Of a stretch of DNA of 64,000 bases, positions 1 through 54,063 are shown piece after piece (the stretch's first letter is position 1; each line of letters opens with the position of its first letter). Source of the DNA: Escherichia coli. GTDB taxonomy: Bacteria > Pseudomonadota > Gammaproteobacteria > Enterobacterales > Enterobacteriaceae. The DNA lies in NCBI RefSeq assembly GCF_002854065.1, contig NZ_CP024147.1. One strand, given 5' to 3'. The position numbers were made by a program, and so were the translations under genes. The notes below the pieces were generated by a model that saw only the letters and a program-made list of their open reading frames with translations, made no database searches and was not told where the DNA came from.

Positions 1-133
1 GGGTTAATTGCCCTGATGATTTAACTCGCTCATAGTTTTCTTTCGTTTTAAATAAAATATCTAAAACCAGTTCGTAAGGTCCGGCATTTTTCGAACGAAT
101 GACTTGCGCCAGTGAGACAATTGACTGTTTCAT
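1..133 (-). CDS. hypothetical protein, N-terminal fragment only (gene runs off the window start)
   Basis: Minus-strand ATG at 133..131 overlaps the TGA (132..130) of the upstream 456-aa ORF (ATGA coupling). Frame stays open to position 1 (MKQSIVSLAQVIRSKNAGPYELVLDILFKTKENYERVKSSGQLT...). Absent from the ORF track because it is truncated. Confidence 0.5.
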   Translation of the reverse strand, partial: MKQSIVSLAQVIRSKNAGPYELVLDILFKTKENYERVKSSGQLT

Positions 134-1500
134 GCCTGAACTCCTTCTGGCGTCACCTGTTCAATATGGAAATCAAAACGCAGAGCGTCGTTGGCTTCAA
201 TCAGGTGATATATGGAAAATTCGTATACCGGCCCGCCCTGGATATCAGAAGGGGAGAACGGGAACGCCAGGTTGCCTGCGGTAGCGATGCGGTTTTCATA
301 GCCGTAGTGCAGCATGGTAGAGCGCACCAGCGAGCAAACGCTATTGGCAATTTCCTGGGTCGGTGCAACTACATCAAGGACAATCCCCAGCTCATGCCCG
401 GCAGTTTGCATCGGTTCATGGTCGCCCATCACCCCGTTTTTACCGTACAGGTGGAAAATGATGCGAATGCTGTCATCGTCTAACGACAGGTTACGCGAAA
501 CGCTGGTTTTGACTTCATCGATGATTTTATCGATCCCGGCGATCATGATCGGGTCGCGCGTTCCGGCGATGGTCAGACAGCGGAAGCCCACCCGTCGCGC
601 ACCTTCCAGTTTCAGGGCATACGGCGTTTCTTCATGCTTAGAACCGCTGACGTACACTTCGCCGTCATTGACTGCTTTAAATGTGCAGCCTTTCAGGTTC
701 AACACGCCGCCAGGTCCTGGCAGGAAGTAGGGATCGGATTTCTCATACAGTGTGTGTGCAGCTGCTGACGTTTCGGTAAATTTACGCTTCGGATTAAATG
801 TCTTCAGCGTAAAGCCGTTGTCATCAATGATGCCCATCGCACAGTCAGAGCCTGAGCCGGGCGTTGCGGCGATTGCTGCGCACTCAAGGATTTTCCCACA
901 ATGCAGCGCCAGACCTTCATCAAAGCCTTGCATGATCGGTAGCGCAGCAAAGCAGGCCGGGTCGTAAGCGCGCCCACCCAGCACCACTTGCGCGCCTTCT
1001 TTCAGCGCCCGCTGGAAGGGTTCGATGCCCATTTGCGCGACGATATACGTACTTTCGTCAATCGCGTCGTGGGTTAACGGCGGGACAAAATCCAGCGCCG
1101 TGATTTTGCCGTTATCCAGCGCCTGGTGGACGATGGCTTTGTCAACGTCTGCCGGGATCAACGCCATCGAGAACGAGAGGTGCTCTTCCTGGGCAATCTC
1201 ATGAATTATTTCTCGGCACCACTCCAGGTGTGGTGCGGCACCAGAACCGCCAGCCGTTCCGATCACCACCGGTATATTATTTTGCACGCCTGCGGTGATC
1301 ATATAGCGCAGATCGCGCTTGACCCCTGCGCGATCGGTAAACGGTTTGCCTGCCCCGAGGTAGTGGGGGCCTGGATCGGAAGAGCCTGCATCAACGGCGA
1401 TCAGATCGGGCGATTCTGCCATCGCTTTACGGAAGCTCTCTTCCGGGAATCCATACCCGAGGATTGCCGTTGGCGATAAGACTTTAAAAGAACGAGCCAT
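130..1500 (-). CDS. uncharacterised 456-aa soluble protein co-operonic with methylaspartase (tentatively DUF1446/AtuA-like; family recalled, not searched)
   Basis: Long ORF MARSFKVLSPTAILGYGF...; start 4 nt downstream of the mal stop on the same strand; no hydrophobic TM stretch. Confidence 0.75.
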   Translation of the reverse strand: MARSFKVLSPTAILGYGFPEESFRKAMAESPDLIAVDAGSSDPGPHYLGAGKPFTDRAGVKRDLRYMITAGVQNNIPVVIGTAGGSGAAPHLEWCREIIHEIAQEEHLSFSMALIPADVDKAIVHQALDNGKITALDFVPPLTHDAIDESTYIVAQMGIEPFQRALKEGAQVVLGGRAYDPACFAALPIMQGFDEGLALHCGKILECAAIAATPGSGSDCAMGIIDDNGFTLKTFNPKRKFTETSAAAHTLYEKSDPYFLPGPGGVLNLKGCTFKAVNDGEVYVSGSKHEETPYALKLEGARRVGFRCLTIAGTRDPIMIAGIDKIIDEVKTSVSRNLSLDDDSIRIIFHLYGKNGVMGDHEPMQTAGHELGIVLDVVAPTQEIANSVCSLVRSTMLHYGYENRIATAGNLAFPFSPSDIQGGPVYEFSIYHLIEANDALRFDFHIEQVTPEGVQA

Positions 1501-1503
1501 TTG

Positions 1504-2745
1504 TTAATCCTTAGCCTGCAACAGCGCGATAGTACGATTCATTTCGTTGAAGACGATATCGAGGCCTTCGTCAAAACCCATCCCTGGTTTTACCAGCATA
1601 CGCATAGGGCGAGCGGCAAGGGCGACGTGGACACAGGTGCGGGCACTAACATCAGTTTCATTGCAGGTGCCGCCCTGGTACGCTTCCATGCTGTGGCTGT
1701 TGCAGTAAAGAACCGCATCGACGATGTTGTGAATACTTCCAAGATCCGGGGTTTTGATTTGCACCATGTGACAACTGGCGGCATCAGTGAAATCAACAAT
1801 ATCCTGGTAGGTGTTACACCATTCATCGGCCACAATTTTCACGCCGGAACCGAGGCGCGTCAGCTCTTTGGTAATCGCGGTCAGCAGGCGAATTTGGTCG
1901 GGCTTGTTACCGGCATCGACCGGCCCTTCAATGTAGAGCGGCAGGCCTTGCGCTTCTTTTTCCAGGCTGGCGATGTATTGCGCACAGCGAAGCGGATCCA
2001 TATCGAAGATCAGACCGATAGTGCCGTATACATCGATGTGCAGGGTAGGGTGGTAGCGTGCGCTGGTGCGCTTGCTCAGAATGCGATCCGACAGCCAGCG
2101 GACATATTCGCGCAGTTTTTCACCTTTAAAGCCCAGCTTCTCTTCGACGTTATTAATCAGCGCATGGGGCAGCACGTCGATGCCCTTAAGGATCATCTTA
2201 TCGACGGCGATATATCGATCGTCGCCGCTCTGGCCAAATAATGGAATGGATTCCGCCACGTGTGGCAACTGCCATTCATCACAGACCACTTCAGTTTTCA
2301 GACGGCCGGTTGCCAGCGCAGTAGCATCAAGCAGCGCCTGTGATAATCCGTAGCGCACGGCGGTATGCAGCAAGTTGCCGTCAATACGCAGTTTGTCGAA
2401 GAAACGGGCATTCGGCAGGAAAGCATCCACATCGCGGCCTACCAGTAATGGCTTGATATGGTCGTTGAGGAACGGAATAAAGTGCTCTGCGAGGAACAGT
2501 GGATCGCGACCACCTGCCCCGGAATACTGTACGGCAGCACAGTCACCTACAGCGACCGCGCCGTTTTCCAGAATCAACTGTACCGATACGCACTCCCCGG
2601 CCTGACGAACGGCGTTAAACCCCTGTGTTACCGGCTCCCCGGTATAAAAAAAGCCGTCATGACCCGCTCCGTTTTTTATCGCCTGCTGGTCATCGAAATA
2701 GAATGAGGAGTAGCCAGCGGTGAACAGAGCCTGTTTTATTTTCAT
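1504..2745 (-). CDS. mal: 3-methylaspartate ammonia-lyase (methylaspartase)
   Basis: 413 aa; MKIKQALFTAGYSSFYFDDQQAIKNGAGHDGF...CAAVQYSGAGGRDPLFLAEHFIP...VQIKTPDLG closely resembles clostridial methylaspartase as I recall it; start shares one nt with the glmE stop. Confidence 0.9.
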   Translation of the reverse strand: MKIKQALFTAGYSSFYFDDQQAIKNGAGHDGFFYTGEPVTQGFNAVRQAGECVSVQLILENGAVAVGDCAAVQYSGAGGRDPLFLAEHFIPFLNDHIKPLLVGRDVDAFLPNARFFDKLRIDGNLLHTAVRYGLSQALLDATALATGRLKTEVVCDEWQLPHVAESIPLFGQSGDDRYIAVDKMILKGIDVLPHALINNVEEKLGFKGEKLREYVRWLSDRILSKRTSARYHPTLHIDVYGTIGLIFDMDPLRCAQYIASLEKEAQGLPLYIEGPVDAGNKPDQIRLLTAITKELTRLGSGVKIVADEWCNTYQDIVDFTDAASCHMVQIKTPDLGSIHNIVDAVLYCNSHSMEAYQGGTCNETDVSARTCVHVALAARPMRMLVKPGMGFDEGLDIVFNEMNRTIALLQAKD

Positions 2746-4190
2746 TATGGTCTTTCTATTAATTTACTGTGGGATACAGCATTGATGTCATCTACAACCA
2801 TCTGGAATGTCGGTTGGCGTCCTTCAAAGCGTGCGCGTTCCGCGACGTAATCGTGGTGGAGGTCGAGAATATCTTTTGGCAATGGAACGGCTCCGGCTTC
2901 CAGTACGCGTATCGCGCCGGTGTTGTCACGGACCGGAAGAATATTGCCCGCGTTGCAGGCGGCTGGCGCAAACGGCACATCCAGTACGCCCGCTTCAAAT
3001 GCCAGCACCGTACCGCGCGCAATATCACCATTACCCAGTTCGAACACTTTATTCAGTACCGCGCGAACCTCGCTCTTAATCAGTTCAATTTCCAGTTCAA
3101 CCGCAGGGCACGGCGGGAATTTCTGCTCATTGACCATGTTGAGCATCTGGCGGGAGGCTTTCAGCCCCTGAATGTTGGCAGCGGCAGTCGGGATACCCCA
3201 GGCTTCGTGCGGACTTTTGGTGATGACTTTGGTGGCACCAGACATCCCCGCGACGGCTGCGCCCCAGGAGATAATAGCGAACGCTTTCGATTCGTCTTCC
3301 GGAAAGCCGCCCATCCACTGGTGAAACACGGTACTCAATTCATAGTCGGTATAGCCATAGCTCTGAAAGTATTCGTGTGCAAGTTCACGCAGAGACTGGA
3401 TCGCCGCAACATCCTGCGTCAGGCTGCCGACCTGGCCATAACCAACGGTGATAGATTTCACACCCTGTTCCAGTGCCAGCAAGCCTTCGATTATCGCGAT
3501 AGAGTGCGAGATAAACGGCGGGATCAGCGTACCCGTTAGTGGGCCAAACGGTTCGCGGTTGATGCGGATCCCGTGTTCTTCATACATCCCCATTAAACGG
3601 TCGCAGTACTGCCAGTCGCGGATCGATTTTTCCAGCGTTACGCGTTTGGCATACGGAATGTTGTAGGAAATGCCACCGCCTTCATAACTGGTAAAGCCGC
3701 TGGCCATTGAGATTTCAGCCAGCAGACGCGCATCTGGCGTGCCGTGGCGGATCTGTAGCGGTTTTTGCAGGGTTTCGGTGAGGCGACGGCAAGCTGCGAC
3801 ACCATGGTTAACTACCGGTAAACCGTTCAGTTTAGAGGTTCCGGCTTCGATGGATTTTTTAATCCCTACAGCCGCTTCTTCGTACCGATTCAGACGGGTA
3901 TATGCATCGATGGTGCTTGGCAGCAGATCGCACTCTTCTTGTAGTGTTTTCAGCAGTTCGATGTGTTCGTCCATCAGCGCCACACCTGCGCGCGGTTGGC
4001 TAAGGGTTTTACCTTCCTTGTCTGCTTTCAGCAGCGCAAGAGAGAAGCGTTTATGCTCAGGGATGGTTTGTTGGTATTTAACGCCATCTTCAAAGATTTC
4101 AACATCCTTGCCGGTTTCCCAGGTTTTCAGTACCTGTTGCCGCTCGGTCATGAATTCGTCATGGGTTAATTTCTTATTTCGAAGTTCCAT
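2745..4190 (-). CDS. glmE: glutamate mutase E (epsilon, catalytic) subunit
   Basis: 481 aa, MELRNKKLTHDEFMTERQQVLKTWETGKDV...; size and N-terminus match methylaspartate mutase E chain; sits between glmL and mal. Confidence 0.88.
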   Translation of the reverse strand: MELRNKKLTHDEFMTERQQVLKTWETGKDVEIFEDGVKYQQTIPEHKRFSLALLKADKEGKTLSQPRAGVALMDEHIELLKTLQEECDLLPSTIDAYTRLNRYEEAAVGIKKSIEAGTSKLNGLPVVNHGVAACRRLTETLQKPLQIRHGTPDARLLAEISMASGFTSYEGGGISYNIPYAKRVTLEKSIRDWQYCDRLMGMYEEHGIRINREPFGPLTGTLIPPFISHSIAIIEGLLALEQGVKSITVGYGQVGSLTQDVAAIQSLRELAHEYFQSYGYTDYELSTVFHQWMGGFPEDESKAFAIISWGAAVAGMSGATKVITKSPHEAWGIPTAAANIQGLKASRQMLNMVNEQKFPPCPAVELEIELIKSEVRAVLNKVFELGNGDIARGTVLAFEAGVLDVPFAPAACNAGNILPVRDNTGAIRVLEAGAVPLPKDILDLHHDYVAERARFEGRQPTFQMVVDDINAVSHSKLIERP

Positions 4191-4208
4191 TGATTGCAGC
4201 CTTAATTG

Positions 4209-5597
4209 TTATAGGGTTAAGCATTGAATACTGGTGCGCGCGGCGGCCAGCGGATCGACTCTGGCGACGTTTGCCAGCAGTGGTAATAGCCCCCGGGAAT
4301 CGCGGTAATATTCAAATTCGGTCGGTAAGAGAATGCGTTTACCGTCGTCGTTTAACTCGCGGTATTTCAACCAGTGATGCATATCGAACTGACTGGCACG
4401 CGAGAGCCATCCGCCGGATCCGACGACTTTACGCACGGTTGTCAGGTCACGTCCCATCTGTAAATCGACATTGCCGACGCAGGTGCAGACCTCTTTTTTG
4501 GTGCCCGCATGTCTTTCGGTGGCATAACCCACACACAGTCCGGCCAGGACGGTATCGAAATATTTCTCTTCTGCATTTGCGGGTAAGTAGTCGGGATGAG
4601 CGACTAGATGACGGAGGTAATGATAAAAAGCGTCCAGCTGTGCGGGTTGCTGAGCAAAATTCACATTGACTAACTCTTTCGCACTTTCACCAACCACCAC
4701 TGCCGAGACGCGCATTCCCAGATCGCCTTCCACCGTCCGTTTTACGAAGGGTTCCGGTACGCCGTGTAAAACGGTGTCGGGCGAGAGCGTGTTGGCACAG
4801 GCGGAATAAACATCGGTGGTTGCGCCGCCCATGTCGATCAGCATGAACTCTTTCCAGCTGTGATCGACGTTACTGATTGCCTTGACCAGTTCAAAGACCG
4901 TCCATGGTGTCGGCATTGGTTCTTCGCCTGTTTTATCAACAATGACATCCAGCCCTTTCCCTTTAACGATGCGTTTAAGGAATATGTCGCAAATAGCCTG
5001 GCGTGCGGCTAAAGGGTTCGGATGGTCAAGATCGGGCAGAACATTGTCGACGATGGTCAGGTCTTTATGCCCGAGGATCTCCTGCACCTCGTCCTGAATA
5101 TCCCGGTTTCCGGCATAAATAATGGCGCAGTCGAGTTTGGATTCTGCCAGCACACGGGCGTTATTCAGTCCGTAGCTTTCTTCTCCGCCGTCGGTGCCGC
5201 CGGTGAACAAGAGAATATCGGGCTGCGTTTCTTCCAGTGCCTGGATATCACGGCGGTTCAGCTTGTAGGCGTAATATTGCGCAATTTTAGCACCCGCAGA
5301 GTGAGCGGTTACTTTCGCGGTTTCCAGGGTGATAGAAGGCACCAATCCCATTGCGGCAACCGCCAGCCCACCTTTGGCAGAGGAGGAATACTTCAATGCA
5401 ACCTCACCGCTGTTTAACAGGGGGAGGGCATTATCTACGTTTAACACCTGGTTCAGGCTGGAGAAAAACCCCTTCGCCAGATGATGGGTGGTGGTTGGGG
5501 TCAGTACGTGGTTAACCAACGTTAACGCGTCCCCCTCCCGGGTGAAGAGGGCTGCTTTGGTCCACGTCGATCCAATATCGACAGAGACGATTTGCAT
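4209..5597 (-). CDS. glmL: glutamate mutase accessory protein (MutL/GlmL-like, ATPase-fold putative reactivase)
   Basis: 462 aa, [18 protein letters not shown]... (actin/hexokinase-like N-terminal phosphate motif); located between S and E subunit genes as in clostridial mutS-mutL-mutE. Confidence 0.8.
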   Translation of the reverse strand: MQIVSVDIGSTWTKAALFTREGDALTLVNHVLTPTTTHHLAKGFFSSLNQVLNVDNALPLLNSGEVALKYSSSAKGGLAVAAMGLVPSITLETAKVTAHSAGAKIAQYYAYKLNRRDIQALEETQPDILLFTGGTDGGEESYGLNNARVLAESKLDCAIIYAGNRDIQDEVQEILGHKDLTIVDNVLPDLDHPNPLAARQAICDIFLKRIVKGKGLDVIVDKTGEEPMPTPWTVFELVKAISNVDHSWKEFMLIDMGGATTDVYSACANTLSPDTVLHGVPEPFVKRTVEGDLGMRVSAVVVGESAKELVNVNFAQQPAQLDAFYHYLRHLVAHPDYLPANAEEKYFDTVLAGLCVGYATERHAGTKKEVCTCVGNVDLQMGRDLTTVRKVVGSGGWLSRASQFDMHHWLKYRELNDDGKRILLPTEFEYYRDSRGLLPLLANVARVDPLAAARTSIQCLTL

Positions 5598-6046
5598 CAG
5601 ATAGCCTCTTCAAGAATACGAGTATCAACGTCATGACGTTGGTTGATATCGTGGGCCATCAGCTGACAAACATCTTCTAAGTCATGACTTGGGGCAAAGA
5701 CGCGATCAAATCCCATCTCTTTGAATTTGGTTTCCACGTCAGCGAAGTCATGTTTTCCGACCACCAGGTTACCGCCCACATAGAGCAGGATGTCCCCCAG
5801 TCCACGCTCGATGCAGCGTTCGCGCATGCCCAGACAGTCGATATCGCCATGCCCATAGATAGAGGAGACGACAATCGCGTCAGCGCCAGTTTCAATGGCC
5901 GCATCAATATATTCGTCCTGGCTGACCATTACGCCCAGATTAATGACTCTGAAGTCGTGGTTGCTAAAAACGCGGTCCAGAACTTTATTGCCTACTGCAT
6001 GGCAGTCCGCGCCAATAACGCCAATCACAAGTGTTGCTTTCTTCAT
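5597..6046 (-). CDS. glutamate mutase S (sigma, cobalamin-binding) subunit; symbol left blank because glmS/mutS clash with unrelated E. coli genes
   Basis: [23 protein letters not shown]... carries the DxHxxG B12-binding signature; start moved from track ORF 6109 to ATG 6046 with AAGGA RBS 7 nt upstream; stop shares one nt with glmL start. Confidence 0.85.
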
Positions 6047-6592
6047 GGGTAATCCTTTGTAAGACAGAGAGTAAAATAAGTTACACACGTCGTATTTATG
6101 GCCGTTCATAACGGCACAGGTTTAATATCACAGGAGTGTCTTTATCTGACCGTAATGTTGCAATTGATCTATTTTCAAAATGTCTTTCGGGAAATGATTG
6201 TTTAAAGTGTGTTTTTAAATTCCCATGTTAATTCAGTATGTTATGTCAACTAATGTCATGAATGTTAAATTTTTAAAATTAACTTGATTTAATGTATTGA
6301 GATAATTGTGATCTACTTCTAATTTGCATTTTAGTGATATGGGTTTAGCCATGAGTAAATGCATTTCATAAAATTTAAGTCGAATTTCACTGCAATTCAT
6401 CTCTGCTTAATGTAAAAATAATGTTGAAAATAACAAATGGTTAATGATTCATGCGAATTATGACGTTAGTTAGCTCTTTTGATTTTTCGTAAAAAAGAGA
6501 GGTACATGAAGGTGCTACCAGTATGAGTAACGTTAATCAAAGGTTTTATTACGTCTGGCAATAACGCAGGCCATTTTCGCGACTGGGTGGAT

Positions 6593-7015
6593 TTAATCAG
6601 TATAATCCTCATACAATATTTCAGGATTAACTGAACCGTTAACCGGGTTTTGGTGTTGAAATTTAGAAATGGCGGAGTCAATCAATGAAGACAGTATCGA
6701 AAAAATAACTGTGTCAGAACTAATTTCAATTAATCCTTCTCGTTGTTGACCAAAAAAGATATTTATCTTGATTTCATTTGTACTACGGCAATCAATATGT
6801 AGTAATTTTTGATCGCTGAGATTTTCTGTTTCATAAATGTTTTTGGCGATAGTCGGATGTATTGATGCCAGACATCTGCTCAGATAAGCCAGATCCTTTA
6901 GGGAACACCCCGCTGAGTAGAGGATGTCAGAGAATTTTTGTGTGTCAACTGTTGTCTCTGAAGCGTATGTTGCATTGACAGGAAGGGTGTTGAAAGAGAT
7001 TTGAGATGGGATCAT
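6593..7015 (-). CDS. hypothetical acidic 140-aa protein, unknown function
   Basis: Intact ORF in AT-rich DNA; net negative charge (about 17 D/E vs 9 K/R); no TM segment; GGAAAG about 9 nt upstream of ATG; co-directional with the 314-aa ORF 81 bp upstream. Confidence 0.6.
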   Translation of the reverse strand: MIPSQISFNTLPVNATYASETTVDTQKFSDILYSAGCSLKDLAYLSRCLASIHPTIAKNIYETENLSDQKLLHIDCRSTNEIKINIFFGQQREGLIEISSDTVIFSILSSLIDSAISKFQHQNPVNGSVNPEILYEDYTD

Positions 7016-7096
7016 TATTTAAATCTTTCCGTGAGTAATAAAAATTAATCCCCAGGCATTGTTTAACAATATTTGCCATAGGGGATATATAGAAAA

Positions 7097-8041
7097 TTAA
7101 AGTATTTTATTGGCTTCGGTTAACTGATCTATAACCAGTGCCAGATTGGTAAACATTTTGAAAAAGCGATACTGGCTCGGAATATCTCTTTCAAAGACGA
7201 AACATTCAAGGTCATTGTTTGAAAAATAAAGGACTAGTGTTGCTGATTCGTCAGGGAAAACATGGAAATGTATCTGGTTACCAGAAGGAGGATAGTCCAG
7301 AAGAAGGGTATCTTTGCCCGTCACATACCTGTTGTTGTCGTGGACGCTACGCTCACACTTCATCAGAGGTGTCAGGATACTCATGTATTCATCTGATGTT
7401 AATTTATTAAAATCATCATTCATTTTAAAGAAACGATAAAGTAACAGTACATCCTCTTGCGTAACCGGTTCGTTTGTTTTTAGAGGGAAATAAGCGGGAA
7501 CCAGAAGATGAGGTTCTAATCTATTTTGTTGAGCGCTATAACTGAATTTGAACATAAATTCCGGATCGCTCATCAATTGAGCGACATAATTATGCCTGGC
7601 TTCGAAAATTTTAATTTTTATCAGGTTAAATAAGTCTGTTTCGTCATCCTGTATTAAAAGACATTGGCCATAGCAGCCAGGCTTTTTTTCATTATAAGCA
7701 GAAACGGTTATTCTGTCAGAGGTGTCAACGTTATATTCAAAAGCCAGATAGTGACCTTCTTCATCGCGATTTGTTTCCAGGTTATTTAAATTCATCACAT
7801 GAAGTGTTTGCAATGCTGATTCAATGAGCTGTTGACTCTCTGAGGTAAATGTTTCGCGCTGCGTTGTATAAAGTGTATCAATTCCAACGACTATCCGATG
7901 TGGGTCAAGGATGGCGGCAATCATCTTTATTACCTGCACAGTCACGGGTGATGTCATTGATTCTTTATCTGTTTTTAGAGAATCATTAGATGGCCAACCT
8001 GAGAAGCGATTGACAGCCGAACCGATATTATCAGGACTCAT
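7097..8041 (-). CDS. hypothetical 314-aa protein, unknown function
   Basis: Intact ORF in AT-rich DNA; GAGG 8 nt upstream of ATG; Ser/Thr/Asn-rich N-terminus; no TM segment, P-loop or HEXXH motif; not recognisable as any K-12 protein. Confidence 0.7.
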   Translation of the reverse strand: MSPDNIGSAVNRFSGWPSNDSLKTDKESMTSPVTVQVIKMIAAILDPHRIVVGIDTLYTTQRETFTSESQQLIESALQTLHVMNLNNLETNRDEEGHYLAFEYNVDTSDRITVSAYNEKKPGCYGQCLLIQDDETDLFNLIKIKIFEARHNYVAQLMSDPEFMFKFSYSAQQNRLEPHLLVPAYFPLKTNEPVTQEDVLLLYRFFKMNDDFNKLTSDEYMSILTPLMKCERSVHDNNRYVTGKDTLLLDYPPSGNQIHFHVFPDESATLVLYFSNNDLECFVFERDIPSQYRFFKMFTNLALVIDQLTEANKIL

Positions 8042-8495
8042 AGCAGCAACCTCATTGTAATCAAGCGAGGCGCTGAGCGTACTCGGCTATAGAAAAACTA
8101 ACTTGCAAAAATCGCTCATTTTTCATTTATCAGGCGAAAGTGGTCTCTGTACACTCAGAAACAATCACTCCCGCTAAGTCATACCTGTTTCATCGATACA
8201 TTTAAGTGATTATTACTAATGAAACAATAACATAACGGGCTTACGGTCGGTGCTCATAAAGGCAACAATCAATTAACTTTGATAAAAATATGTTATGTAA
8301 AATAGCAACAAATTGGCTACTCTAATCAATTGGTATTATAAAAAGTGGATAAGGCGGTTCTGTTAAATAAAATACTGGTTTTTTATCTATACCTTTTCAT
8401 TGTAATAATTGTGTTGCATAAATATTTCACAATAAATTAACAATAAAATCACCAATGATCTATGGTTTATACATAATTAACATATTTGGTTGGTT

Positions 8496-8509
8496 TTGAT
8501 ATAAATCAA
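8496..8509 (+). promoter_or_regulatory. FNR-type site TTGAT-N4-ATCAA in cydA upstream region
   Basis: Perfect palindrome ttgatataaatcaa; cydAB is known to be FNR/ArcA controlled. Confidence 0.6.
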
Positions 8510-8846
8510 TTTTTAATTCTTGAAAAAAATCTGCAAAACACGATAAATTGTCGTAGATCAAATTGATGAGATCGTGACAATTTCGCTATAAATTGATCAC
8601 TGTCGAAAAATGCAAATTTGCTCAATAAAAACCTGTTTATTGTAAGGATTTTGCGGCGTAATATAATTACGGGATCAATTTGGTTTATTCATTAACATAT
8701 TTGTAACTTTTTTATCATTGTCTTTTCCTCTTTTGATGAAATGGCAACGATAGGGGCGAGCAAATAATTTTGTATTGGGGCATGCGTGTGACCCTTTCTA
8801 ACGGGGTTCACTCTCGGAGTCTTCATGCGATGAGCAAGGAGTCATG

Positions 8847-10415
8847 ATGTTAGATATAGTCGAACTGTCGCGCTTACAGTTTGCCTTGACCGCGATGTAC
8901 CACTTCCTTTTTGTGCCACTGACGCTCGGTATGGCGTTCCTGCTGGCCATTATGGAAACGGTCTACGTCCTTTCCGGCAAACAGATTTATAAAGATATGA
9001 CCAAGTTCTGGGGCAAGTTGTTTGGTATCAACTTCGCTCTGGGTGTGGCTACCGGTCTGACCATGGAGTTCCAGTTCGGGACTAACTGGTCTTACTATTC
9101 CCACTATGTAGGGGATATCTTCGGTGCGCCGCTGGCAATCGAAGGTCTGATGGCCTTCTTCCTCGAATCCACCTTTGTAGGTCTGTTCTTCTTCGGTTGG
9201 GATCGTCTGGGTAAAGTTCAGCATATGTGTGTCACCTGGCTGGTGGCGCTCGGTTCAAACCTGTCCGCGCTGTGGATTCTGGTTGCAAACGGCTGGATGC
9301 AAAACCCAATCGCGTCCGATTTCAACTTTGAAACTATGCGTATGGAGATGGTGAGCTTCTCCGAGCTGGTGCTTAACCCGGTTGCTCAGGTGAAATTCGT
9401 TCACACTGTAGCGTCTGGTTATGTGACTGGCGCGATGTTCATCCTCGGTATCAGCGCATGGTATATGCTGAAAGGTCGTGACTTCGCCTTCGCTAAACGC
9501 TCCTTTGCTATCGCTGCCAGCTTCGGTATGGCTGCCGTTCTGTCTGTTATTGTTCTGGGTGATGAATCCGGCTACGAAATGGGCGACGTGCAGAAAACCA
9601 AACTGGCTGCTATTGAAGCTGAGTGGGAAACGCAACCTGCGCCTGCTGCCTTTACTCTGTTCGGCATTCCTGATCAGGAAGAGGAGACGAACAAATTTGC
9701 GATCCAGATCCCTTACGCGCTGGGCATCATTGCAACGCGTTCCGTGGATACTCCAGTTATCGGCCTGAAAGAACTGATGGTGCAGCATGAAGAACGCATT
9801 CGTAACGGGATGAAGGCGTACTCTCTGCTCGAGCAACTGCGTTCTGGTTCTACCGACCAGGCGGTTCGTGACCAGTTCAACAGCATGAAGAAAGACCTCG
9901 GTTACGGTCTGCTGCTGAAACGCTATACGCCAAACGTGGCTGATGCGACTGAAGCGCAGATTCAACAGGCAACCAAAGACTCCATTCCGCGTGTAGCGCC
10001 GCTGTACTTCGCGTTCCGTATCATGGTGGCGTGTGGCTTCCTGCTGCTGGCAATCATCGCGCTCTCTTTCTGGAGTGTCATCCGCAACCGCATTGGCGAG
10101 AAAAAATGGCTCCTGCGCGCCGCGCTGTACGGTATTCCGCTGCCGTGGATTGCTGTAGAAGCGGGCTGGTTCGTGGCTGAATATGGCCGCCAACCGTGGG
10201 CTATCGGTGAAGTGCTGCCGACAGCTGTGGCGAACTCGTCACTGACCGCAGGCGATCTCATCTTCTCAATGGTGCTGATTTGCGGCCTGTATACCCTGTT
10301 CCTGGTGGCAGAATTGTTCTTAATGTTCAAGTTTGCACGCCTCGGCCCAAGCAGCCTGAAAACCGGTCGCTATCACTTTGAGCAGTCTTCCACGACTACT
10401 CAGCCGGCACGCTAA
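8847..10415 (+). CDS. cydA: cytochrome bd-I ubiquinol oxidase subunit I
   Basis: [28 protein letters not shown]...; 522 aa from second ATG (AAGGA RBS 6 nt upstream). Confidence 0.97.
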
Positions 10416-11698: not shown

Positions 11699-11991
11699 TG
11701 AGTAAGATTATCGCAACCTTGTATGCGGTAATGGACAAGCGCCCCCTGCGGGCGCTTTCCTTCGTGATGGCGCTTCTGTTAGCAGGATGTATGTTTTGGG
11801 ACCCATCTCGTTTTGCCGCGAAGACCAGTGAACTGGAAATCTGGCATGGTTTATTGCTGATGTGGGCCGTCTGTGCTGGTGTGATTCACGGCGTGGGCTT
11901 TCGTCCGCAGAAGGTTCTTTGGCAAGGGATTTTTTGCCCATTGCTTGCCGATATTGTTCTCATTGTCGGGCTGATTTTCTTCTTCTTTTAA
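11698..11991 (+). CDS. ybgE: cyd operon inner membrane protein YbgE
   Basis: 97 aa, MSKIIATLYAVMDKRPLRALSFVMALLLAGC...; start overlaps cydX stop. Confidence 0.9.
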   Translation: MSKIIATLYAVMDKRPLRALSFVMALLLAGCMFWDPSRFAAKTSELEIWHGLLLMWAVCAGVIHGVGFRPQKVLWQGIFCPLLADIVLIVGLIFFFF

Positions 11992-12012
11992 ATCAGAATT
12001 CTCTTTAAAAAA

Positions 12013-12042
12013 TTATGGGCCGCTCCAGGCCCATAAATTTTT
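12013..12042 (+). terminator. rho-independent terminator after ybgE
   Basis: Hairpin ttatgggcc-gctcca-ggcccataa followed by a T-run. Confidence 0.6.
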
Positions 12043-12140
12043 ACGCTCCCTTAACTTGCCCTCATTCCCAAACCTCAATCGCGCGCGTATAGTAGCAGCG
12101 TTTAAAAGCTCTAACTTTTGTTGCATTACCGGGATGTAAA

Positions 12141-16461: not shown

Positions 16462-17007
<546 letters not shown>

Positions 17008-17016
17008 GAGAATTGC

Positions 17017-17808
17017 ATGAGCAGTAACTTCAGACATCAACTATTGAGTCTGTCGTTACTGGTTGGTATAGCGGCCCCCTGGGCCGCTTTTGCTCAGGCA
17101 CCAATCAGTAGTGTCGGCTCAGGCTCGGTCGAAGACCGCGTCACTCAACTTGAGCGTATTTCTAATGCTCACAGCCAGCTTTTAACCCAACTCCAGCAAC
17201 AACTCTCTGATAATCAATCCGATATTGATTCCCTGCGTGGTCAGATTCAGGAAAATCAGTATCAACTGAATCAGGTCGTGGAGCGGCAAAAGCAGATCCT
17301 GTTGCAGATCGACAGCCTCAGCAGCGGTGGTGCAGCGGCGCAATCAACCAGCGGTGATCAAAGCGGTGCGGCGGCATCAACGACGCCGACAGCTGATGCT
17401 GGTACTGCGAATGCTGGCGCGCCGGTGAAAAGCGGTGATGCAAACACGGATTACAATGCAGCTATTGCGCTGGTGCAGGATAAATCCCGCCAGGATGACG
17501 CAATGGTGGCATTTCAGAATTTCATCAAAAATTACCCTGATTCAACTTACCTGCCAAACGCCAATTATTGGCTGGGTCAGTTAAACTACAACAAGGGTAA
17601 AAAAGATGATGCGGCGTACTATTTTGCTTCGGTAGTGAAAAACTATCCGAAGTCACCAAAGGCTGCAGATGCGATGTTTAAAGTCGGTGTCATCATGCAG
17701 GACAAAGGTGACACCGCAAAAGCGAAAGCCGTATACCAGCAGGTTATCAGTAAATACCCTGGTACTGATGGCGCTAAACAGGCACAAAAACGTCTGAACG
17801 CGATGTAA
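17017..17808 (+). CDS. cpoB: cell division coordinator CpoB (YbgF)
   Basis: 263 aa, signal peptide, coiled-coil, TPR-like C-terminus. Confidence 0.95.
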   Translation: MSSNFRHQLLSLSLLVGIAAPWAAFAQAPISSVGSGSVEDRVTQLERISNAHSQLLTQLQQQLSDNQSDIDSLRGQIQENQYQLNQVVERQKQILLQIDSLSSGGAAAQSTSGDQSGAAASTTPTADAGTANAGAPVKSGDANTDYNAAIALVQDKSRQDDAMVAFQNFIKNYPDSTYLPNANYWLGQLNYNKGKKDDAAYYFASVVKNYPKSPKAADAMFKVGVIMQDKGDTAKAKAVYQQVISKYPGTDGAKQAQKRLNAM

Positions 17809-17972: not shown

Positions 17973-18048
17973 GGGTCGTTAGCTCAGTTGGTAGAGCAGT
18001 TGACTTTTAATCAATTGGTCGCAGGTTCGAATCCTGCACGACCCACCA
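17973..18048 (+). tRNA. lysT: tRNA-Lys (anticodon UUU)
   Basis: 76-nt gggtcgttagctcagttggtagagcagttgacttttaatcaattggtcgcaggttcgaatcctgcacgacccacca with encoded CCA. Confidence 0.97.
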
Positions 18049-18083
18049 CTAACCTAGTTAGTTGTAGTATCCAGCGTAGTATC

Positions 18084-18159
18084 GGGTGATTAGCTCAGCT
18101 GGGAGAGCACCTCCCTTACAAGGAGGGGGTCGGCGGTTCGATCCCGTCATCACCCACCA
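18084..18159 (+). tRNA. valT: tRNA-Val (anticodon UAC)
   Basis: 76-nt gggtgattagctcagctgggagagcacctcccttacaaggagggggtcggcggttcgatcccgtcatcacccacca. Confidence 0.97.
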
Positions 18160-18161
18160 CC

Positions 18162-18237
18162 GGGTCGTTAGCTCAGTTGGTAGAGCAGTTGACTTTTAAT
18201 CAATTGGTCGCAGGTTCGAATCCTGCACGACCCACCA
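18162..18237 (+). tRNA. lysW: tRNA-Lys (UUU)
   Basis: Identical copy of the lysT sequence. Confidence 0.97.
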
Positions 18238-18288
18238 CTAATTACGGTGGGTTCGGTGGAAGTAGTTTGTAGTATCCAGCGCAGTATC

Positions 18289-18364
18289 GGGTGATTAGCT
18301 CAGCTGGGAGAGCACCTCCCTTACAAGGAGGGGGTCGGCGGTTCGAACCCGTCATCACCCACCA
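18289..18364 (+). tRNA. valZ: tRNA-Val (UAC), T-loop variant
   Basis: Same as valT except gttcgaaccc instead of gttcgatccc in the T-loop. Confidence 0.95.
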
Positions 18365-18367
18365 CTC

Positions 18368-18443
18368 GGGTCGTTAGCTCAGTTGGTAGAGCAGTTGACT
18401 TTTAATCAATTGGTCGCAGGTTCGAATCCTGCACGACCCACCA
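18368..18443 (+). tRNA. lysY: tRNA-Lys (UUU)
   Basis: Identical copy. Confidence 0.97.
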
Positions 18444-18495
18444 GTTTTAACATCAAACTCAGATGTTAAGCGTGAAGGATAACGTTGCGCCAGCA

Positions 18496-18541
18496 ACGGC
18501 CCGTAGGGCGAGCGAAGCGAGTCATCCTGCACGACCCACCA
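18496..18541 (+). repeat. tRNA-Lys 3'-end remnant repeat, copy 1
   Basis: acggcccgtagggcgagcgaagcgagtc followed by atcctgcacgacccacca, the exact last 18 nt of tRNA-Lys; no 5' half. Confidence 0.7.
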
Positions 18542-18589
18542 ATCTTAAAGATTGGCCCCGAGTAAAAATCTTTCAGGTAACACCCGTAT

Positions 18590-18665
18590 GGGTCGTTAGC
18601 TCAGTTGGTAGAGCAGTTGACTTTTAATCAATTGGTCGCAGGTTCGAATCCTGCACGACCCACCA
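18590..18665 (+). tRNA. lysZ: tRNA-Lys (UUU)
   Basis: Identical copy. Confidence 0.97.
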
Positions 18666-18698
18666 TCCTGAATGATTAAAGCAGCATAATCCCGCAAG

Positions 18699-18774
18699 GG
18701 GTCGTTAGCTCAGTTGGTAGAGCAGTTGACTTTTAATCAATTGGTCGCAGGTTCGAATCCTGCACGACCCACCA
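18699..18774 (+). tRNA. lysQ: tRNA-Lys (UUU)
   Basis: Identical copy; last gene of the array. Confidence 0.97.
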
Positions 18775-18778
18775 ATGT

Positions 18779-18805
18779 AAAAAAGCGCCCTAAAGGCGCT
18801 TTTTT
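18779..18805 (+). terminator. rho-independent terminator of the tRNA operon
   Basis: aaaagcgcc-ctaa-aggcgc hairpin followed by tttttt. Confidence 0.75.
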
Positions 18806-18884
18806 GCTATCTGCGATACTCAAAGATTCGAACCTGCAGCAGGTTTGAGTTGAGCGTAGCGAAACAACGGAGCCGCTCGCGGCG

Positions 18885-18930
18885 ACGGCCCGAAGGGCGA
18901 GCGAAGCGAGTCATCCTGCACGACCCACCA
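18885..18930 (+). repeat. tRNA-Lys 3'-end remnant repeat, copy 2
   Basis: acggcccgaagggcgagcgaagcgagtc plus atcctgcacgacccacca; differs from copy 1 by one nt. Confidence 0.7.
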
Positions 18931-35663: not shown

Positions 35664-36695
<1,032 letters not shown>

Positions 36696-36735
36696 CCGCT
36701 GATTTACCCGGCGCAGTCTCTCCTGCGCCGGTGTA

Positions 36736-37689
36736 TTAACCTATCTCCTGTAACGCATGTCTCTGGCGTTCGACGATATTGGTCCACAAATTGTCTTTAT
36801 CGTCAGTCCACAAATTAATCAGCAAGGCAAAAAAGCGTTCAGCTGCCGGAGAAAGCACGGCATCTTTGCGGCGAATAATCCCCAATGTCCGACGTATAAC
36901 GGGTTCCACCAGTGGGATACCAATAATCGAAGAATAGGGCGCATGGGGCATTGCCAGACCAGGAAGCGCTGAAATCCCCAGTCCTGCCTCCACCAGTCCT
37001 AATGACGTCGAAAGATGACGCACTTCGTAAAACCAGTCCAGCTTCCAGGGCTTGTCGGCTAGCTGTTGTTCTATCAACAGTCGGTTGCCGCTGGAGGAGC
37101 GTACGCCAATCATTTTGTAACCCACTAACTCCTGCCATTCTACAAGCTGCTTTTTGGCCAATGGATGGTCACGCCGACAGGCCAGCACGAACGGCTCGTT
37201 GACCAGTGGGCTAAAATCAATGGATGAATTTGTGACGTTGTTCATGTTTATGCCAAAGTCTGATTCGTTACATAGCACCGATTCCATGCAATTATTCGTG
37301 CCTTGTTCCAGAATCCGCACTTTAATATTGGGATACAGCTCATTAAATTTACCGATTGCCAGCGGTAAAAAATAAAATACTGCGGTCGGAATACACGCTA
37401 ACGTCACCATACCACGATGATAAGCATTCATATCACGAATATTAAAAAGCGTTTCATCGAATTTCTTTATTAATTCCCGCGCCTCCGGGAGCAACCTTTT
37501 TCCTGCTTTTGTTAACGTAACCTTGCGAGTTGTACGCTCAAATAGTTGAATATGTAAATCTTCCTCCATCTTTTTTATTCTTCGCGTTAATGCAGGTTGC
37601 GTAATGTTGAGTAATTTAGCGGCATTGTTAAATGAACTGGACTCTGCCAGTATGACAAATGCCTTCATACTTGATAATTCATGCTTCAT
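36736..37689 (-). CDS. ybhD: LysR-family transcriptional regulator YbhD
   Basis: 317 aa from MKHELSSMKAFVILAESSSFNNAAKLLNITQPALTRRIKKMEEDL... (HTH); track ORF trimmed by 21 codons. Confidence 0.93.
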   Translation of the reverse strand: MKHELSSMKAFVILAESSSFNNAAKLLNITQPALTRRIKKMEEDLHIQLFERTTRKVTLTKAGKRLLPEARELIKKFDETLFNIRDMNAYHRGMVTLACIPTAVFYFLPLAIGKFNELYPNIKVRILEQGTNNCMESVLCNESDFGINMNNVTNSSIDFSPLVNEPFVLACRRDHPLAKKQLVEWQELVGYKMIGVRSSSGNRLLIEQQLADKPWKLDWFYEVRHLSTSLGLVEAGLGISALPGLAMPHAPYSSIIGIPLVEPVIRRTLGIIRRKDAVLSPAAERFFALLINLWTDDKDNLWTNIVERQRHALQEIG

Positions 37690-37872
37690 TATTACTCCGG
37701 AAAATGGAAGCGTTGATTTTGGGTGGCTGGCCGTTAAAAATTTTAACTGCATTTAGCCAACTTAAATTAATGAAAAAATGTTATTAATCGTTGAGCTAAA
37801 GTCATTAGAGATGCTTTGCCCTTAATGTAACCATATCGCAATAAGTTATATTTTTAAATTGAGGGCATTATT

Positions 37873-38925
37873 ATGAAAAAAATACCCTGCGTGATGATGC
37901 GAGGTGGAACCTCGAGGGGCGCGTTCCTGTTAGCGGAACATTTACCCGAAGATCAAACGCAGCGCGATAAAATATTGATGGCAATTATGGGTTCCGGTAA
38001 CGATCTGGAAATTGACGGTATTGGCGGCGGTAATCCGCTGACCAGTAAAGTCGCCATTATTAGCCGTTCCAGCGATCCGCGTGCTGATGTCGATTATCTG
38101 TTTGCTCAAGTTATCGTCCATGAGCAACGTGTCGATACCACGCCTAACTGCGGCAATATGCTGTCTGGCGTTGGGGCATTCGCCATTGAAAATGGTTTGA
38201 TTGCAGCGACTTCGCCAGTTACCCGCGTACGTATCCGCAACGTCAATACGGGTACGTTTATCGAAGCTGATGTGCAAACACCAAATGGTGTTGTCGAGTA
38301 CGAGGGTAGCGCCAGAATTGACGGCGTACCGGGTACTGCCGCACCGGTTGCGCTCACTTTCCTGAATGCCGCTGGAACGAAAACCGGAAAAGTTTTCCCG
38401 ACTGATAATCAGATTGATTATTTTGACGATGTCCCGGTGACCTGTATCGATATGGCGATGCCAGTCGTCATTATTCCGGCTGAATATCTGGGAAAAACAG
38501 GCTATGAATTACCGGCGGAACTGGATGCCGACAAAGCATTATTAGCCCGCATTGAATCTATCCGTCTACAAGCGGGTAAAGCAATGGGCTTAGGTGATGT
38601 CAGTAATATGGTTATCCCTAAACCTGTGCTTATTTCTCCAGCGCAGAAAGGCGGGGCAATTAATGTGCGTTATTTTATGCCGCATTCTTGCCATCGCGCG
38701 TTGGCGATAACCGGTGCTATTGCTATTTCCAGTAGTTGTGCATTGGAAGGCACCGTCACCCGACAAATCATCCCTTCTGTAGGATATGGCAATATCAATA
38801 TTGAACCCCCCAGTGGTGCGCTCGACGTTCATTTAAGTAATGAAGGTCAGGATGCCACGACGTTACGCTCATCTGTTATTCGGACGACCAGAAAAATATT
38901 TTCCGGTGAAGTTTATCTTCCCTGA
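37873..38925 (+). CDS. ybhH: PrpF/AcnD-accessory family isomerase-like protein YbhH
   Basis: 350 aa, MKKIPCVMMRGGTSRGAFLL... Confidence 0.93.
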   Translation: MKKIPCVMMRGGTSRGAFLLAEHLPEDQTQRDKILMAIMGSGNDLEIDGIGGGNPLTSKVAIISRSSDPRADVDYLFAQVIVHEQRVDTTPNCGNMLSGVGAFAIENGLIAATSPVTRVRIRNVNTGTFIEADVQTPNGVVEYEGSARIDGVPGTAAPVALTFLNAAGTKTGKVFPTDNQIDYFDDVPVTCIDMAMPVVIIPAEYLGKTGYELPAELDADKALLARIESIRLQAGKAMGLGDVSNMVIPKPVLISPAQKGGAINVRYFMPHSCHRALAITGAIAISSSCALEGTVTRQIIPSVGYGNINIEPPSGALDVHLSNEGQDATTLRSSVIRTTRKIFSGEVYLP

Positions 38926-39000
38926 AAAGATTCGTTGTCAGGATAAGGACAATCAATAAAGGACTTCTGTATGAGTCATACAGAAAGAACAGGATTTTAA

Positions 39001-40434
39001 ATGAATAAGAAATCGTTATGGAAGCTAATTCTGATATTAGCGATCCCATGTATTATTGGCTTTATGCCAGCTCCGGCAGGATTAAGCGAACTGGCGTGGG
39101 TGCTTTTTGGTATTTACCTGGCGGCCATTGTGGGGCTGGTTATCAAGCCTTTCCCGGAACCTGTCGTACTGTTAATTGCCGTTGCTGCCTCCATGGTGGT
39201 GGTCGGTAACTTATCCGACGGTGCGTTTAAAACCACCGCCGTATTAAGCGGTTACTCTTCAGGTACTACCTGGCTGGTGTTCTCGGCGTTTACCTTAAGC
39301 GCCGCATTTGTGACCACCGGTTTAGGTAAACGTATTGCCTATCTGCTGATTGGTAAAATCGGTAACACCACGCTGGGTCTGGGTTACGTTACGGTATTCC
39401 TCGATCTGGTACTGGCTCCGGCAACACCGTCTAACACCGCGCGTGCGGGCGGCATTGTGTTACCGATCATCAACAGCGTGGCGGTAGCTTTGGGGTCCGA
39501 ACCGGAAAAAAGTCCGCGTCGTGTCGGACATTACCTGATGATGTCCATTTACATGGTCACCAAAACCACCAGCTATATGTTCTTTACCGCAATGGCGGGG
39601 AACATTCTGGCGCTGAAAATGATCAACGACATTCTGCACCTGCAAATTAGCTGGGGTGGATGGGCGCTGGCCGCCGGATTGCCGGGCATCATTATGCTGC
39701 TGGTCACCCCGCTGGTGATTTACACCATGTATCCACCAGAAATTAAGAAGGTGGATAACAAAACCATCGCTAAAGCGGGCCTTGCCGAACTGGGACCGAT
39801 GAAAATCCGCGAAAAAATGCTGCTCGGTGTCTTTGTGCTGGCGCTGCTGGGCTGGATTTTCAGTAAGTCTCTGGGGGTTGATGAATCCACCGTGGCAATC
39901 GTTGTTATGGCGACCATGCTGCTGCTGGGTATCGTTACCTGGGAAGACGTGGTTAAAAATAAAGGCGGCTGGAATACCTTAATCTGGTACGGCGGTATTA
40001 TCGGCTTAAGCTCCTTATTATCGAAAGTTAAATTTTTCGAATGGTTAGCTGAAGTCTTTAAAAATAACCTGGCATTTGATGGTCACGGTAACGTTGCTTT
40101 CTTCGTTATTATTTTCCTCAGCATCATCGTGCGTTATTTCTTCGCTTCCGGTAGTGCCTATATCGTTGCTATGTTACCTGTATTTGCCATGCTGGCGAAC
40201 GTCTCCGGCGCACCGTTAATGTTAACCGCGCTGGCACTGTTGTTCTCCAACTCCTATGGCGGCATGGTTACTCACTATGGCGGCGCGGCAGGTCCGGTCA
40301 TCTTTGGCGTGGGTTACAACGATATTAAATCCTGGTGGTTGGTCGGTGCGGTACTGACGATATTAACCTTCCTGGTGCATATCACCCTCGGCGTATGGTG
40401 GTGGAATATGCTGATCGGCTGGAACATGCTGTAA
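39001..40434 (+). CDS. ybhI: DASS-family anion transporter YbhI
   Basis: 477-aa polytopic membrane protein. Confidence 0.93.
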   Translation: MNKKSLWKLILILAIPCIIGFMPAPAGLSELAWVLFGIYLAAIVGLVIKPFPEPVVLLIAVAASMVVVGNLSDGAFKTTAVLSGYSSGTTWLVFSAFTLSAAFVTTGLGKRIAYLLIGKIGNTTLGLGYVTVFLDLVLAPATPSNTARAGGIVLPIINSVAVALGSEPEKSPRRVGHYLMMSIYMVTKTTSYMFFTAMAGNILALKMINDILHLQISWGGWALAAGLPGIIMLLVTPLVIYTMYPPEIKKVDNKTIAKAGLAELGPMKIREKMLLGVFVLALLGWIFSKSLGVDESTVAIVVMATMLLLGIVTWEDVVKNKGGWNTLIWYGGIIGLSSLLSKVKFFEWLAEVFKNNLAFDGHGNVAFFVIIFLSIIVRYFFASGSAYIVAMLPVFAMLANVSGAPLMLTALALLFSNSYGGMVTHYGGAAGPVIFGVGYNDIKSWWLVGAVLTILTFLVHITLGVWWWNMLIGWNML

Positions 40435-53919: not shown

Positions 53920-54060
53920 GCTAGTATCGGCTTAACCACTAAACACTCTAGCCTCTGCACCTGGGTCAACTGATACGGTGCTTTGGCCGTGACAATGCTC
54001 GTAAAGATTGCCACCAGGGCGAAGGAAGAAATGACTTCGCCTCCCGTATCTGGAAAGGTG
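53920..54060 (+). promoter_or_regulatory. moaA 5' leader, presumed molybdenum-cofactor (Moco) riboswitch
   Basis: About 140-nt structured leader before moaA; the E. coli moaA leader is known to carry the Moco RNA motif; boundaries approximate. Confidence 0.5.
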
Positions 54061-54063
54061 TAC

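Follow-up and report, generated by a model that had tools for sequence, protein, structure and literature searches.

What occupies the interval between sucD and cydA in those Escherichia coli genomes that do not carry mngR-mngA-mngB there, and does the cell have a use for it? This question is raised by a stretch of 64,000 nucleotides (nt) of E. coli DNA (NCBI RefSeq assembly GCF_002854065.1, contig NZ_CP024147.1), referred to here in its full length as the window, in which the minus strand of positions 1-6046 holds a tight row of open reading frames (ORFs) in the order glmS-glmL-glmE-mal-cmlA-cmlB. A K-12-type genome has mngR-mngA-mngB between the same sucD and cydA flanks, which agrees with an earlier, sequence-only reading of this DNA that had described the row as standing in place of mngRAB upstream of cydA. 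Our analyses make it very probable that the region is the promoter-proximal half of an enterobacterial methylaspartate (mesaconate) pathway operon for glutamate catabolism, and most likely it serves for the B12-dependent breakdown of glutamate to ammonia, acetate and pyruvate. This system has been described before and counts as ordinary accessory metabolism rather than as a discovery. The ORFs of the row, with lengths in amino acids (aa) and the models or matches behind each name, are:

5597 to 6046, minus strand: glmS, predicted glutamate mutase sigma subunit, cobalamin-binding, 149 aa (NF002612)
4209 to 5597, minus strand: glmL (mutL), predicted glutamate mutase accessory/reactivating protein, 462 aa (NF040745, TIGR01319)
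2745 to 4190, minus strand: glmE, predicted glutamate (methylaspartate) mutase epsilon subunit, 481 aa (TIGR01503)
1504 to 2745, minus strand: mal, predicted methylaspartate ammonia-lyase, 413 aa (TIGR01502)
130 to 1500, minus strand: cmlA, AtuA family (former DUF1446), putative citramalate lyase large subunit, 456 aa (PF07287, Protein Data Bank match)
1 to 133, minus strand: cmlB (DUF4387), putative citramalate lyase small subunit, first 44 codons, starting at 133 and running past the left edge of the window

Gene identities were assigned with curated NCBIfam equivalog models, whose scores were compared with the curated cut-offs. GlmS scored 253 bits against NF002612 (cut-off of 110), matched the clostridial GlmS structures (1I9C and 1CCW chain A) with an E-value of 1.4e-49, and keeps the cobalamin motif D-x-H-x-x-G at D14, H16 and G19. 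GlmE scored 862 bits against TIGR01503 (cut-off of 390) and matched the Clostridium cochlearium structures 6H9E and 1CCW with an E-value of 6.9e-189; what we take to be its substrate-binding residues (Arg66, Arg100, Arg149, Glu171 and Tyr181 in C. cochlearium numbering) all have conserved equivalents when it is aligned to 6H9E_B. By family and residue criteria, GlmS and GlmE are thus a predicted adenosylcobalamin-dependent glutamate mutase. The gene for GlmL, flanked by glmS and glmE, overlaps the stop codon of glmS, and its product scored 510.5 bits against NF040745 (cut-off of 475) and 897 bits against TIGR01319. Mal, a member of the enolase superfamily, scored 544 bits against TIGR01502 (cut-off of 286), is 94% identical over a gap-free alignment to the Citrobacter amalonaticus enzyme (1KKO), and matched that of Clostridium tetanomorphum (1KCZ) with an E-value of 9e-150. 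The residues that we take to be catalytic or to bind ligands, Q73, Q172, H194, D238, E273, D307, Q329, K331, C361 and L384, are all present; they include the catalytic Lys331 and His194, the magnesium ligands Asp238, Glu273 and Asp307, and Gln329 and Gln172. Profile and residue criteria alike class Mal as a predicted methylaspartate ammonia-lyase. The four identities proposed by the sequence-only reading (GlmS, a MutL-like protein, GlmE and methylaspartase) are in this way borne out by the NCBIfam scores, with clostridial structures matched by GlmS, GlmE and Mal.

Direct reading of the gene junctions revealed that the stop of glmS and the start of glmL have one nucleotide in common (TGATG, at 5597), as do the stop of glmE and the start of mal (TAATG, at 2745), just as had been claimed earlier, and that cmlA and cmlB overlap by 4 nt (ATGA, 130-133). 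The gaps are 3 nt between mal and cmlA and 18 nt between glmL and glmE. From the stop/start overlaps we infer translational coupling, and the genes of the operon are presumably co-transcribed. The longest glmS ORF reaches 6109, and this longer form was rejected: the alignment to the family profile begins at the first residue of the 149-aa form, RefSeq also starts the gene at the ATG at 6046, and AAGGA lies 8 nt upstream of that ATG. Position 6109, which had been given as the right end of the region, does not stand on either count, as glmS starts at 6046 and the segment differing from K-12 reaches ~8470 with two low-GC orphan genes.

The pair of ORFs downstream of mal (130-1500 and the one starting at 133) are probable orthologues of the two-subunit citramalate lyase CmlAB, cleaving citramalate to pyruvate and acetate. 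CmlA belongs to the AtuA family (PF07287) with a modest score of 66 bits, and none of the NCBIfam models matched it; because the Pfam match is modest, CmlA probably represents a distinct subfamily. A sequence search of the Protein Data Bank gave one overwhelming match, to chain A of 9ERQ/9EVF (91% identity, E-value of 4.8e-293), which its depositors named 'Citramalate lyase, subunit A (cmlA)'. The full cmlB encodes 105 aa at positions 11816-12133 of the record of E. coli CUWW06, a genome 100% identical to window 1-8900, and its product matched 9ERQ_B/9EVF chain B, 'Citramalate lyase, subunit B (cmlB)' (E-value of 5.2e-57, ~85% identity). The deposited enzyme consists of two subunits of 456 and 105 aa, an AtuA and a DUF4387 protein, and the window pair would be its orthologue from another enterobacterium. 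Shared gene names and laboratory suggest that 9ERQ/9EVF is the enzyme of Raoultella planticola, whose cmlAB genes in E. coli gave mesaconate-dependent, Cml-dependent growth and label transfer (bioRxiv 10.64898/2026.01.16.699985). A literature search for a paper describing CmlAB itself, and also for AtuA, returned only a preprint using the enzyme.

Gene order ties the AtuA/DUF4387 pair to the pathway independently, as the order glmS-glmL-glmE-mal-AtuA-DUF4387, with class I fumarase genes nearby, is conserved in a Riflebacteria genome and in another distant bacterium. None of citD, citE, citF, citC, citX and citG, the genes of a CitDEF-type lyase, is annotated between sucD and cydA in the CUWW06 record, and the chromosomal citrate lyase of O157:H7, like its isocitrate lyase and methylisocitrate lyase, had no citramalate lyase activity (Kronen & Berg, PMC4682846). 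In two distant bacteria, a ~315-aa gene without a Pfam match directly follows cmlB within a glm-mal-cmlAB operon (L011 10712-11665; L012 10677-11618); nothing corresponds to it in the E. coli cluster, and it may be a further undescribed pathway component in those two bacteria. Pseudomonas AtuA, from the acyclic terpene utilisation cluster, falls into the same Pfam family (PF07287) as CmlA; it is longer, with the DUF4387 part included in the one chain, is not known to be linked to glm or mal genes, and to our knowledge has no established reaction. Several CmlA homologues (database entries P0007, P0064 and P0077) carry the source name '3-methylaspartate ammonia-lyase', a misnaming that Kronen & Berg (PMC4682846) had already remarked upon and that is still propagating.

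The remaining genes of the proposed pathway lie to the left of the window, where the CUWW06 genome encodes a symporter, FumD (a class I fumarase), CobO and a LysR regulator. Glutamate would be taken up through the GltP-type symporter, and GlmS (cobalamin-binding, His-on) together with GlmE would catalyse the adenosylcobalamin-dependent rearrangement of (S)-glutamate to (2S,3S)-3-methylaspartate, with GlmL acting as the reactivating chaperone of the mutase and the CobO of the cluster adenosylating cob(I)alamin. Mal would remove ammonia from 3-methylaspartate to yield mesaconate, FumD would hydrate mesaconate to (S)-citramalate, and the AtuA-family/DUF4387 pair CmlAB would split citramalate into pyruvate and acetate. 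E. coli does not synthesize cobalamin de novo, and the pathway would presumably run only with externally supplied B12 and under some inducing condition; the E. coli proteins presumably perform these reactions in vivo. The mesaconase activity of FumD was described by Kronen & Berg in 2015 (PMC4682846). The sequence-only reading had proposed the clostridial route from glutamate to mesaconate; its first two enzymes and the chaperone hold, but the stop at mesaconate does not, since FumD and CmlAB would extend the route to pyruvate and acetate.

The cluster has the same gene order as the one described in O157:H7 and other Enterobacteriaceae by Kronen & Berg (PLoS One 10:e0145098, 2015, PMC4682846), namely LysR-type transcriptional regulator, CobA/CobO, FumD, GltP, DUF4387, DUF1446, Mal, GlmE, MutL/GlmL and GlmS. 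The CUWW06 copy comes from a wastewater isolate and has an insertion sequence, IS1, beside the regulator gene; nothing essential differs. Kronen & Berg assigned no function to the DUF1446 gene downstream of mal and did not settle what becomes of citramalate (PMC4682846), and the CmlAB structures and the preprint close this gap at the last step, the cleavage of citramalate. With the clostridial pathway of C. tetanomorphum and C. cochlearium, the E. coli cluster has in common the first two enzymes and the accessory protein, the conserved cofactor and substrate residues, and the chemistry from glutamate to pyruvate and acetate. The two differ in the mesaconase (a single-chain class I fumarase, FumD, in E. 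coli versus the two-subunit MesAB in clostridia), in the citramalate lyase (the AtuA/DUF4387 pair versus the acyl-carrier-protein complex CitDEF) and in the regulator (LysR-type versus GntR-type), and the E. coli cluster, unlike the clostridial one, has its own transporter and adenosyltransferase. The label 'clostridial' is therefore apt for the chemistry of the first steps but not for the last enzyme, whose family is unlike CitDEF, and the nearest relatives of the enzymes come from other enterobacteria, as the C. amalonaticus match of Mal illustrates. The haloarchaeal methylaspartate cycle serves anaplerotic acetate assimilation, converts mesaconate to mesaconyl-CoA, and operates without mesaconase or citramalate lyase (PMC4682846).

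To estimate how widespread the cluster is, we used 5,426 complete E. coli genomes and counted as carriers those with at least 80% of window 1-8900. The glutamate cluster was found in ~1,120 of these (21%), nearly all of them 95-99% identical, and an O157:H7 genome matched window 1-8900 at 98.9%. In the published survey, the cluster was present in 26.5% of E. coli and in 90.6% of O157:H7 strains (Kronen & Berg 2015, PMC4682846). The earlier view of the locus as lineage-specific, shared with O157:H7 and not new is upheld by the share of carriers, the O157:H7 match and the 2015 description. The mngRAB genes were present in 3,884 genomes, and a tetratricopeptide-repeat (TPR) gene, often a pseudogene, occupied the site in 1,114 genomes, some of which had a divergent mngRAB plus the TPR gene. 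In aggregate, these genome counts fit mutual exclusion of the glutamate cluster and mngRAB. Because the synonymous divergence of the cluster between lineages is as high as 8-10%, long residence in the species is suggested rather than recent spread. Measured against O157:H7 and a second E. coli lineage, the five pathway genes had ratios of nonsynonymous to synonymous polymorphism (pN/pS) of 0.00-0.21 (0.01-0.03 for mal) and zero stop codons, and on these grounds they are maintained by selection.

Several observations weigh against a working glutamate pathway. In O157:H7 ATCC 700728, methylaspartase activity was undetectable, growth was not stimulated by glutamate and there was no anaerobic growth on glutamate (Kronen & Berg, PMC4682846), which leaves its physiological use in E. 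coli putative. The same authors found no conditions for expression of the pathway in their O157:H7 strain (PMC4682846), and a search of the literature gave us no expression data for the O157 cluster. Within the 546-nt leader upstream of glmS, neither a promoter nor a riboswitch nor a regulator site was identified. The Cml activity is known from depositor names and from one preprint using the enzyme, and 9ERQ is a complex with adenylyl imidodiphosphate (AMPPNP) and citramalate, so that a nucleotide is somehow involved. A genome of sequence type (ST) 2747 (locus L009) carries a decayed cluster, corresponding to window 1-3661 and the sequence to its left, with a 3.7-kb deletion. The deletion joins a cmlB remnant to a glmE remnant, a fusion that the annotation lists as a 'DUF4387 family protein' of 218 aa; the LysR gene of this genome carries a frameshift.

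One could read these observations as signs of a silent, decaying remnant that E. coli has inherited, no longer uses and is losing to pseudogene formation. The absence of expression and activity in ATCC 700728 under any condition tried (PMC4682846), the internal deletion from cmlB to glmE and the frameshifted regulator gene of ST2747, and the IS1 adjoining the LysR gene in CUWW06 would all be expected of such a remnant, and the AT-rich leader fits silencing by nucleoid proteins. However, ~1,120 genomes retain at least 80% of the region, the five ORFs are intact with low pN/pS between lineages whose synonymous sites diverge by as much as 8-10%, the catalytic residues are all kept, and the IS1 lies outside the genes, and we consider decay an improbable account of the cluster as a whole. 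Alternatively, the operon might serve another end, either the secretion of citramalate or mesaconate as a host effector or the use of external methylaspartate, mesaconate or citramalate. Citramalate secretion was raised by Kronen & Berg before any lyase was known, the cluster is by their account present in (opportunistic) pathogens, and in earlier tests no enterobacterium was able to grow with glutamate alone (PMC4682846). Set against this are the predicted dedicated citramalate lyase gene directly downstream of mal, overlapping the next gene and syntenic in distant phyla, from which we argue that citramalate is an intermediate and not an end product, and the glutamate/dicarboxylate symporter gene within the cluster; such another end appears to us very improbable.

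To the suggestion that the AtuA/DUF4387 pair acts in terpene or other acyl-CoA metabolism and is a mere neighbour of the glutamate genes, we attach almost no credence. Its grounds are the family's name in Pfam and RefSeq ('acyclic terpene utilization AtuA family'), the lack of an NCBIfam match, and an Accumulibacter genome in which neither glm nor mal genes accompany the pair. They are outweighed by the identity of 91% and ~85% to a citramalate-bound structure deposited as citramalate lyase, by the independent use of cmlAB as a citramalate lyase in vivo (bioRxiv 10.64898/2026.01.16.699985), and by the 4-nt overlap of the pair, its 3-nt gap to mal and its conserved synteny with mal. All three alternatives are thus disfavoured because of purifying selection, the presence and synteny of the predicted lyase genes, and near-identity to a solved enzyme, and a glutamate-catabolizing methylaspartate operon is the reading that we prefer.

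The practical value of this reading lies in annotation. While the cluster, its frequency in E. coli and the first three enzymes were published in 2015 (PMC4682846), and the solved structures of CmlAB were released in 2025, the RefSeq names are still 'acyclic terpene utilization AtuA family protein' for cmlA and 'DUF4387' for cmlB. Owing to such names, a complete B12-dependent path leading from glutamate to pyruvate and acetate is missing from automated metabolic reconstructions of O157:H7 and of about one-fifth of E. coli genomes. For biology, the point at issue is when the operon would be turned on by E. coli and whether it is of benefit in the gut.

The boundaries of the segment were located by blastn, which gave both junctions, the left one outside the window as the sequence-only reading had stated. 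Between sucD and cydA, CUWW06 has, in order, IS1, the LysR-type regulator gene, cobO, the class I fumarate hydratase gene, the symporter gene, DUF4387, AtuA, mal, glmE, glmL, glmS and two hypothetical genes. The left junction is 103 nt downstream of the sucD stop, immediately beyond the terminator hairpins and ~6.3 kb to the left of window position 1. The right junction with K-12, given by blastn together with an alignment of the regions upstream of cydA, is at window 8471, 376 nt upstream of the cydA ATG at 8847. The replaced segment is therefore ~14.7 kb long, including 0.77 kb of strain-specific IS1, and extends 2.4 kb past the right end that had been proposed earlier. Its features to the right of glmS are:

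6047 to 6592, no strand assigned: AT-rich non-coding stretch of 546 nt with 31% GC, presumed operon promoter/leader (by composition)
6593 to 7015, minus strand: orphan ORF of 140 aa, low GC, a hypothetical protein in RefSeq
7097 to 8041, minus strand: orphan ORF of 314 aa, low GC, found only in Escherichia-like contigs, without a family match
8042 to 8470, no strand assigned: right-hand end of the segment without a K-12 counterpart (blastn of the CUWW06 record against our records L002 and L007)

Neither an integrase nor a tRNA gene is annotated in CUWW06 at either junction. A search for repeats or att-like sequences in window 5900-8900 gave only short, chance-level matches, the left junction being read by eye only and the two junctions not being compared with each other. 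The GC content of the operon (49-56%) is like that of its surroundings, the orphan part alone being lower (31-38%). The cluster is an alternative occupant of a polymorphic intergenic site and not a recognisable mobile element. Across the loci inspected, the sucD-cydA gap was found in multiple states (mngRAB; mngRAB with an intact TPR gene, in L014; a TPR pseudogene alone, in L007 and L008; and the glutamate cluster with the orphans), and every state has the same left junction, ~100 nt after sucD. The IS1 of CUWW06 (record positions 6051-6818) lies between sucD and the LysR gene of the cluster; it is absent from ST2747, against which the junctions overlap by 9 bp, as expected for an IS1 target duplication.

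In the glmS leader and the region upstream of cydA, there was no cobalamin riboswitch, nor any Rfam family at an E-value of 1 or below apart from a chance microRNA match. A scan for promoters and terminators over window 1-9000 returned fewer sites than in shuffled sequence, and nothing usable upstream of glmS, where the minus strand has no convincing sigma-70 consensus. The two orphan genes, part of the segment that replaces mngRAB, have no match in NCBIfam, Pfam, PADLOC or PHROG. For the 314-aa protein, a word-indexed homology search among 5.8 billion proteins found relatives in 5 clusters, all of them the same protein, and when 1.84 billion representatives were searched exhaustively with a profile, nothing but fragments of this protein turned up; neither orphan had relatives outside Escherichia-like contigs in these searches. 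The AlphaFold2 (AF2) model of the 314-aa protein had a predicted local distance difference test (pLDDT) score of 44, too poor for a fold search. One Escherichia-like contig (L003) has a full-length, 64%-identical copy of the 314-aa gene adjoining cydA without the glm operon. Within E. coli, the orphans were present in 1,135 genomes, about the same count as for the cluster, and accompanied the cluster in every locus inspected; pN/pS was 0.17-0.19 for the 140-aa gene and 0.40-0.56 for the 314-aa gene. It seems to us rather unlikely, if conceivable, that the orphans form an undescribed functional unit restricted to Escherichia, such as a regulator of the neighbouring operons or a secreted or host-directed protein, and are not inert cargo. 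If this were true, they might account for the elusive inducing condition of the glutamate pathway.

Next to the right junction, the regulatory region of cydAB (window 8206-8780) exists as two diverged alleles with ~42-78% identity per 50-nt block over most of the stretch from about -380 to -90 relative to the ATG, the exception being block 8608-8656, which is 96% identical. The coding sequence is ~99% identical, and both alleles retain TTGAT-N4-ATCAA (FNR-like) boxes. Which allele is present does not follow the locus type: L007 carries the island type and L008 the K-12 type. Farther along the window, a second IS1 (~37293-37990, within ~36565-39360) is flanked by a LysR-family gene at the position of ybhD and by ybhI, both of which are annotated in RefSeq without an N-terminus; the apparent cause is a deletion associated with the IS1, in which ybhH would have been lost as well. 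K-12-like RNAs that would be expected here include the CpoB/ybgF thermometer at 16908-17046 and the molybdenum cofactor (Moco) riboswitch upstream of moaA at 53932-54076. The seven-gene lysT-valT tRNA cluster with RtT repeats, at 17973-18930, has shorter spacers than the K-12-type record.

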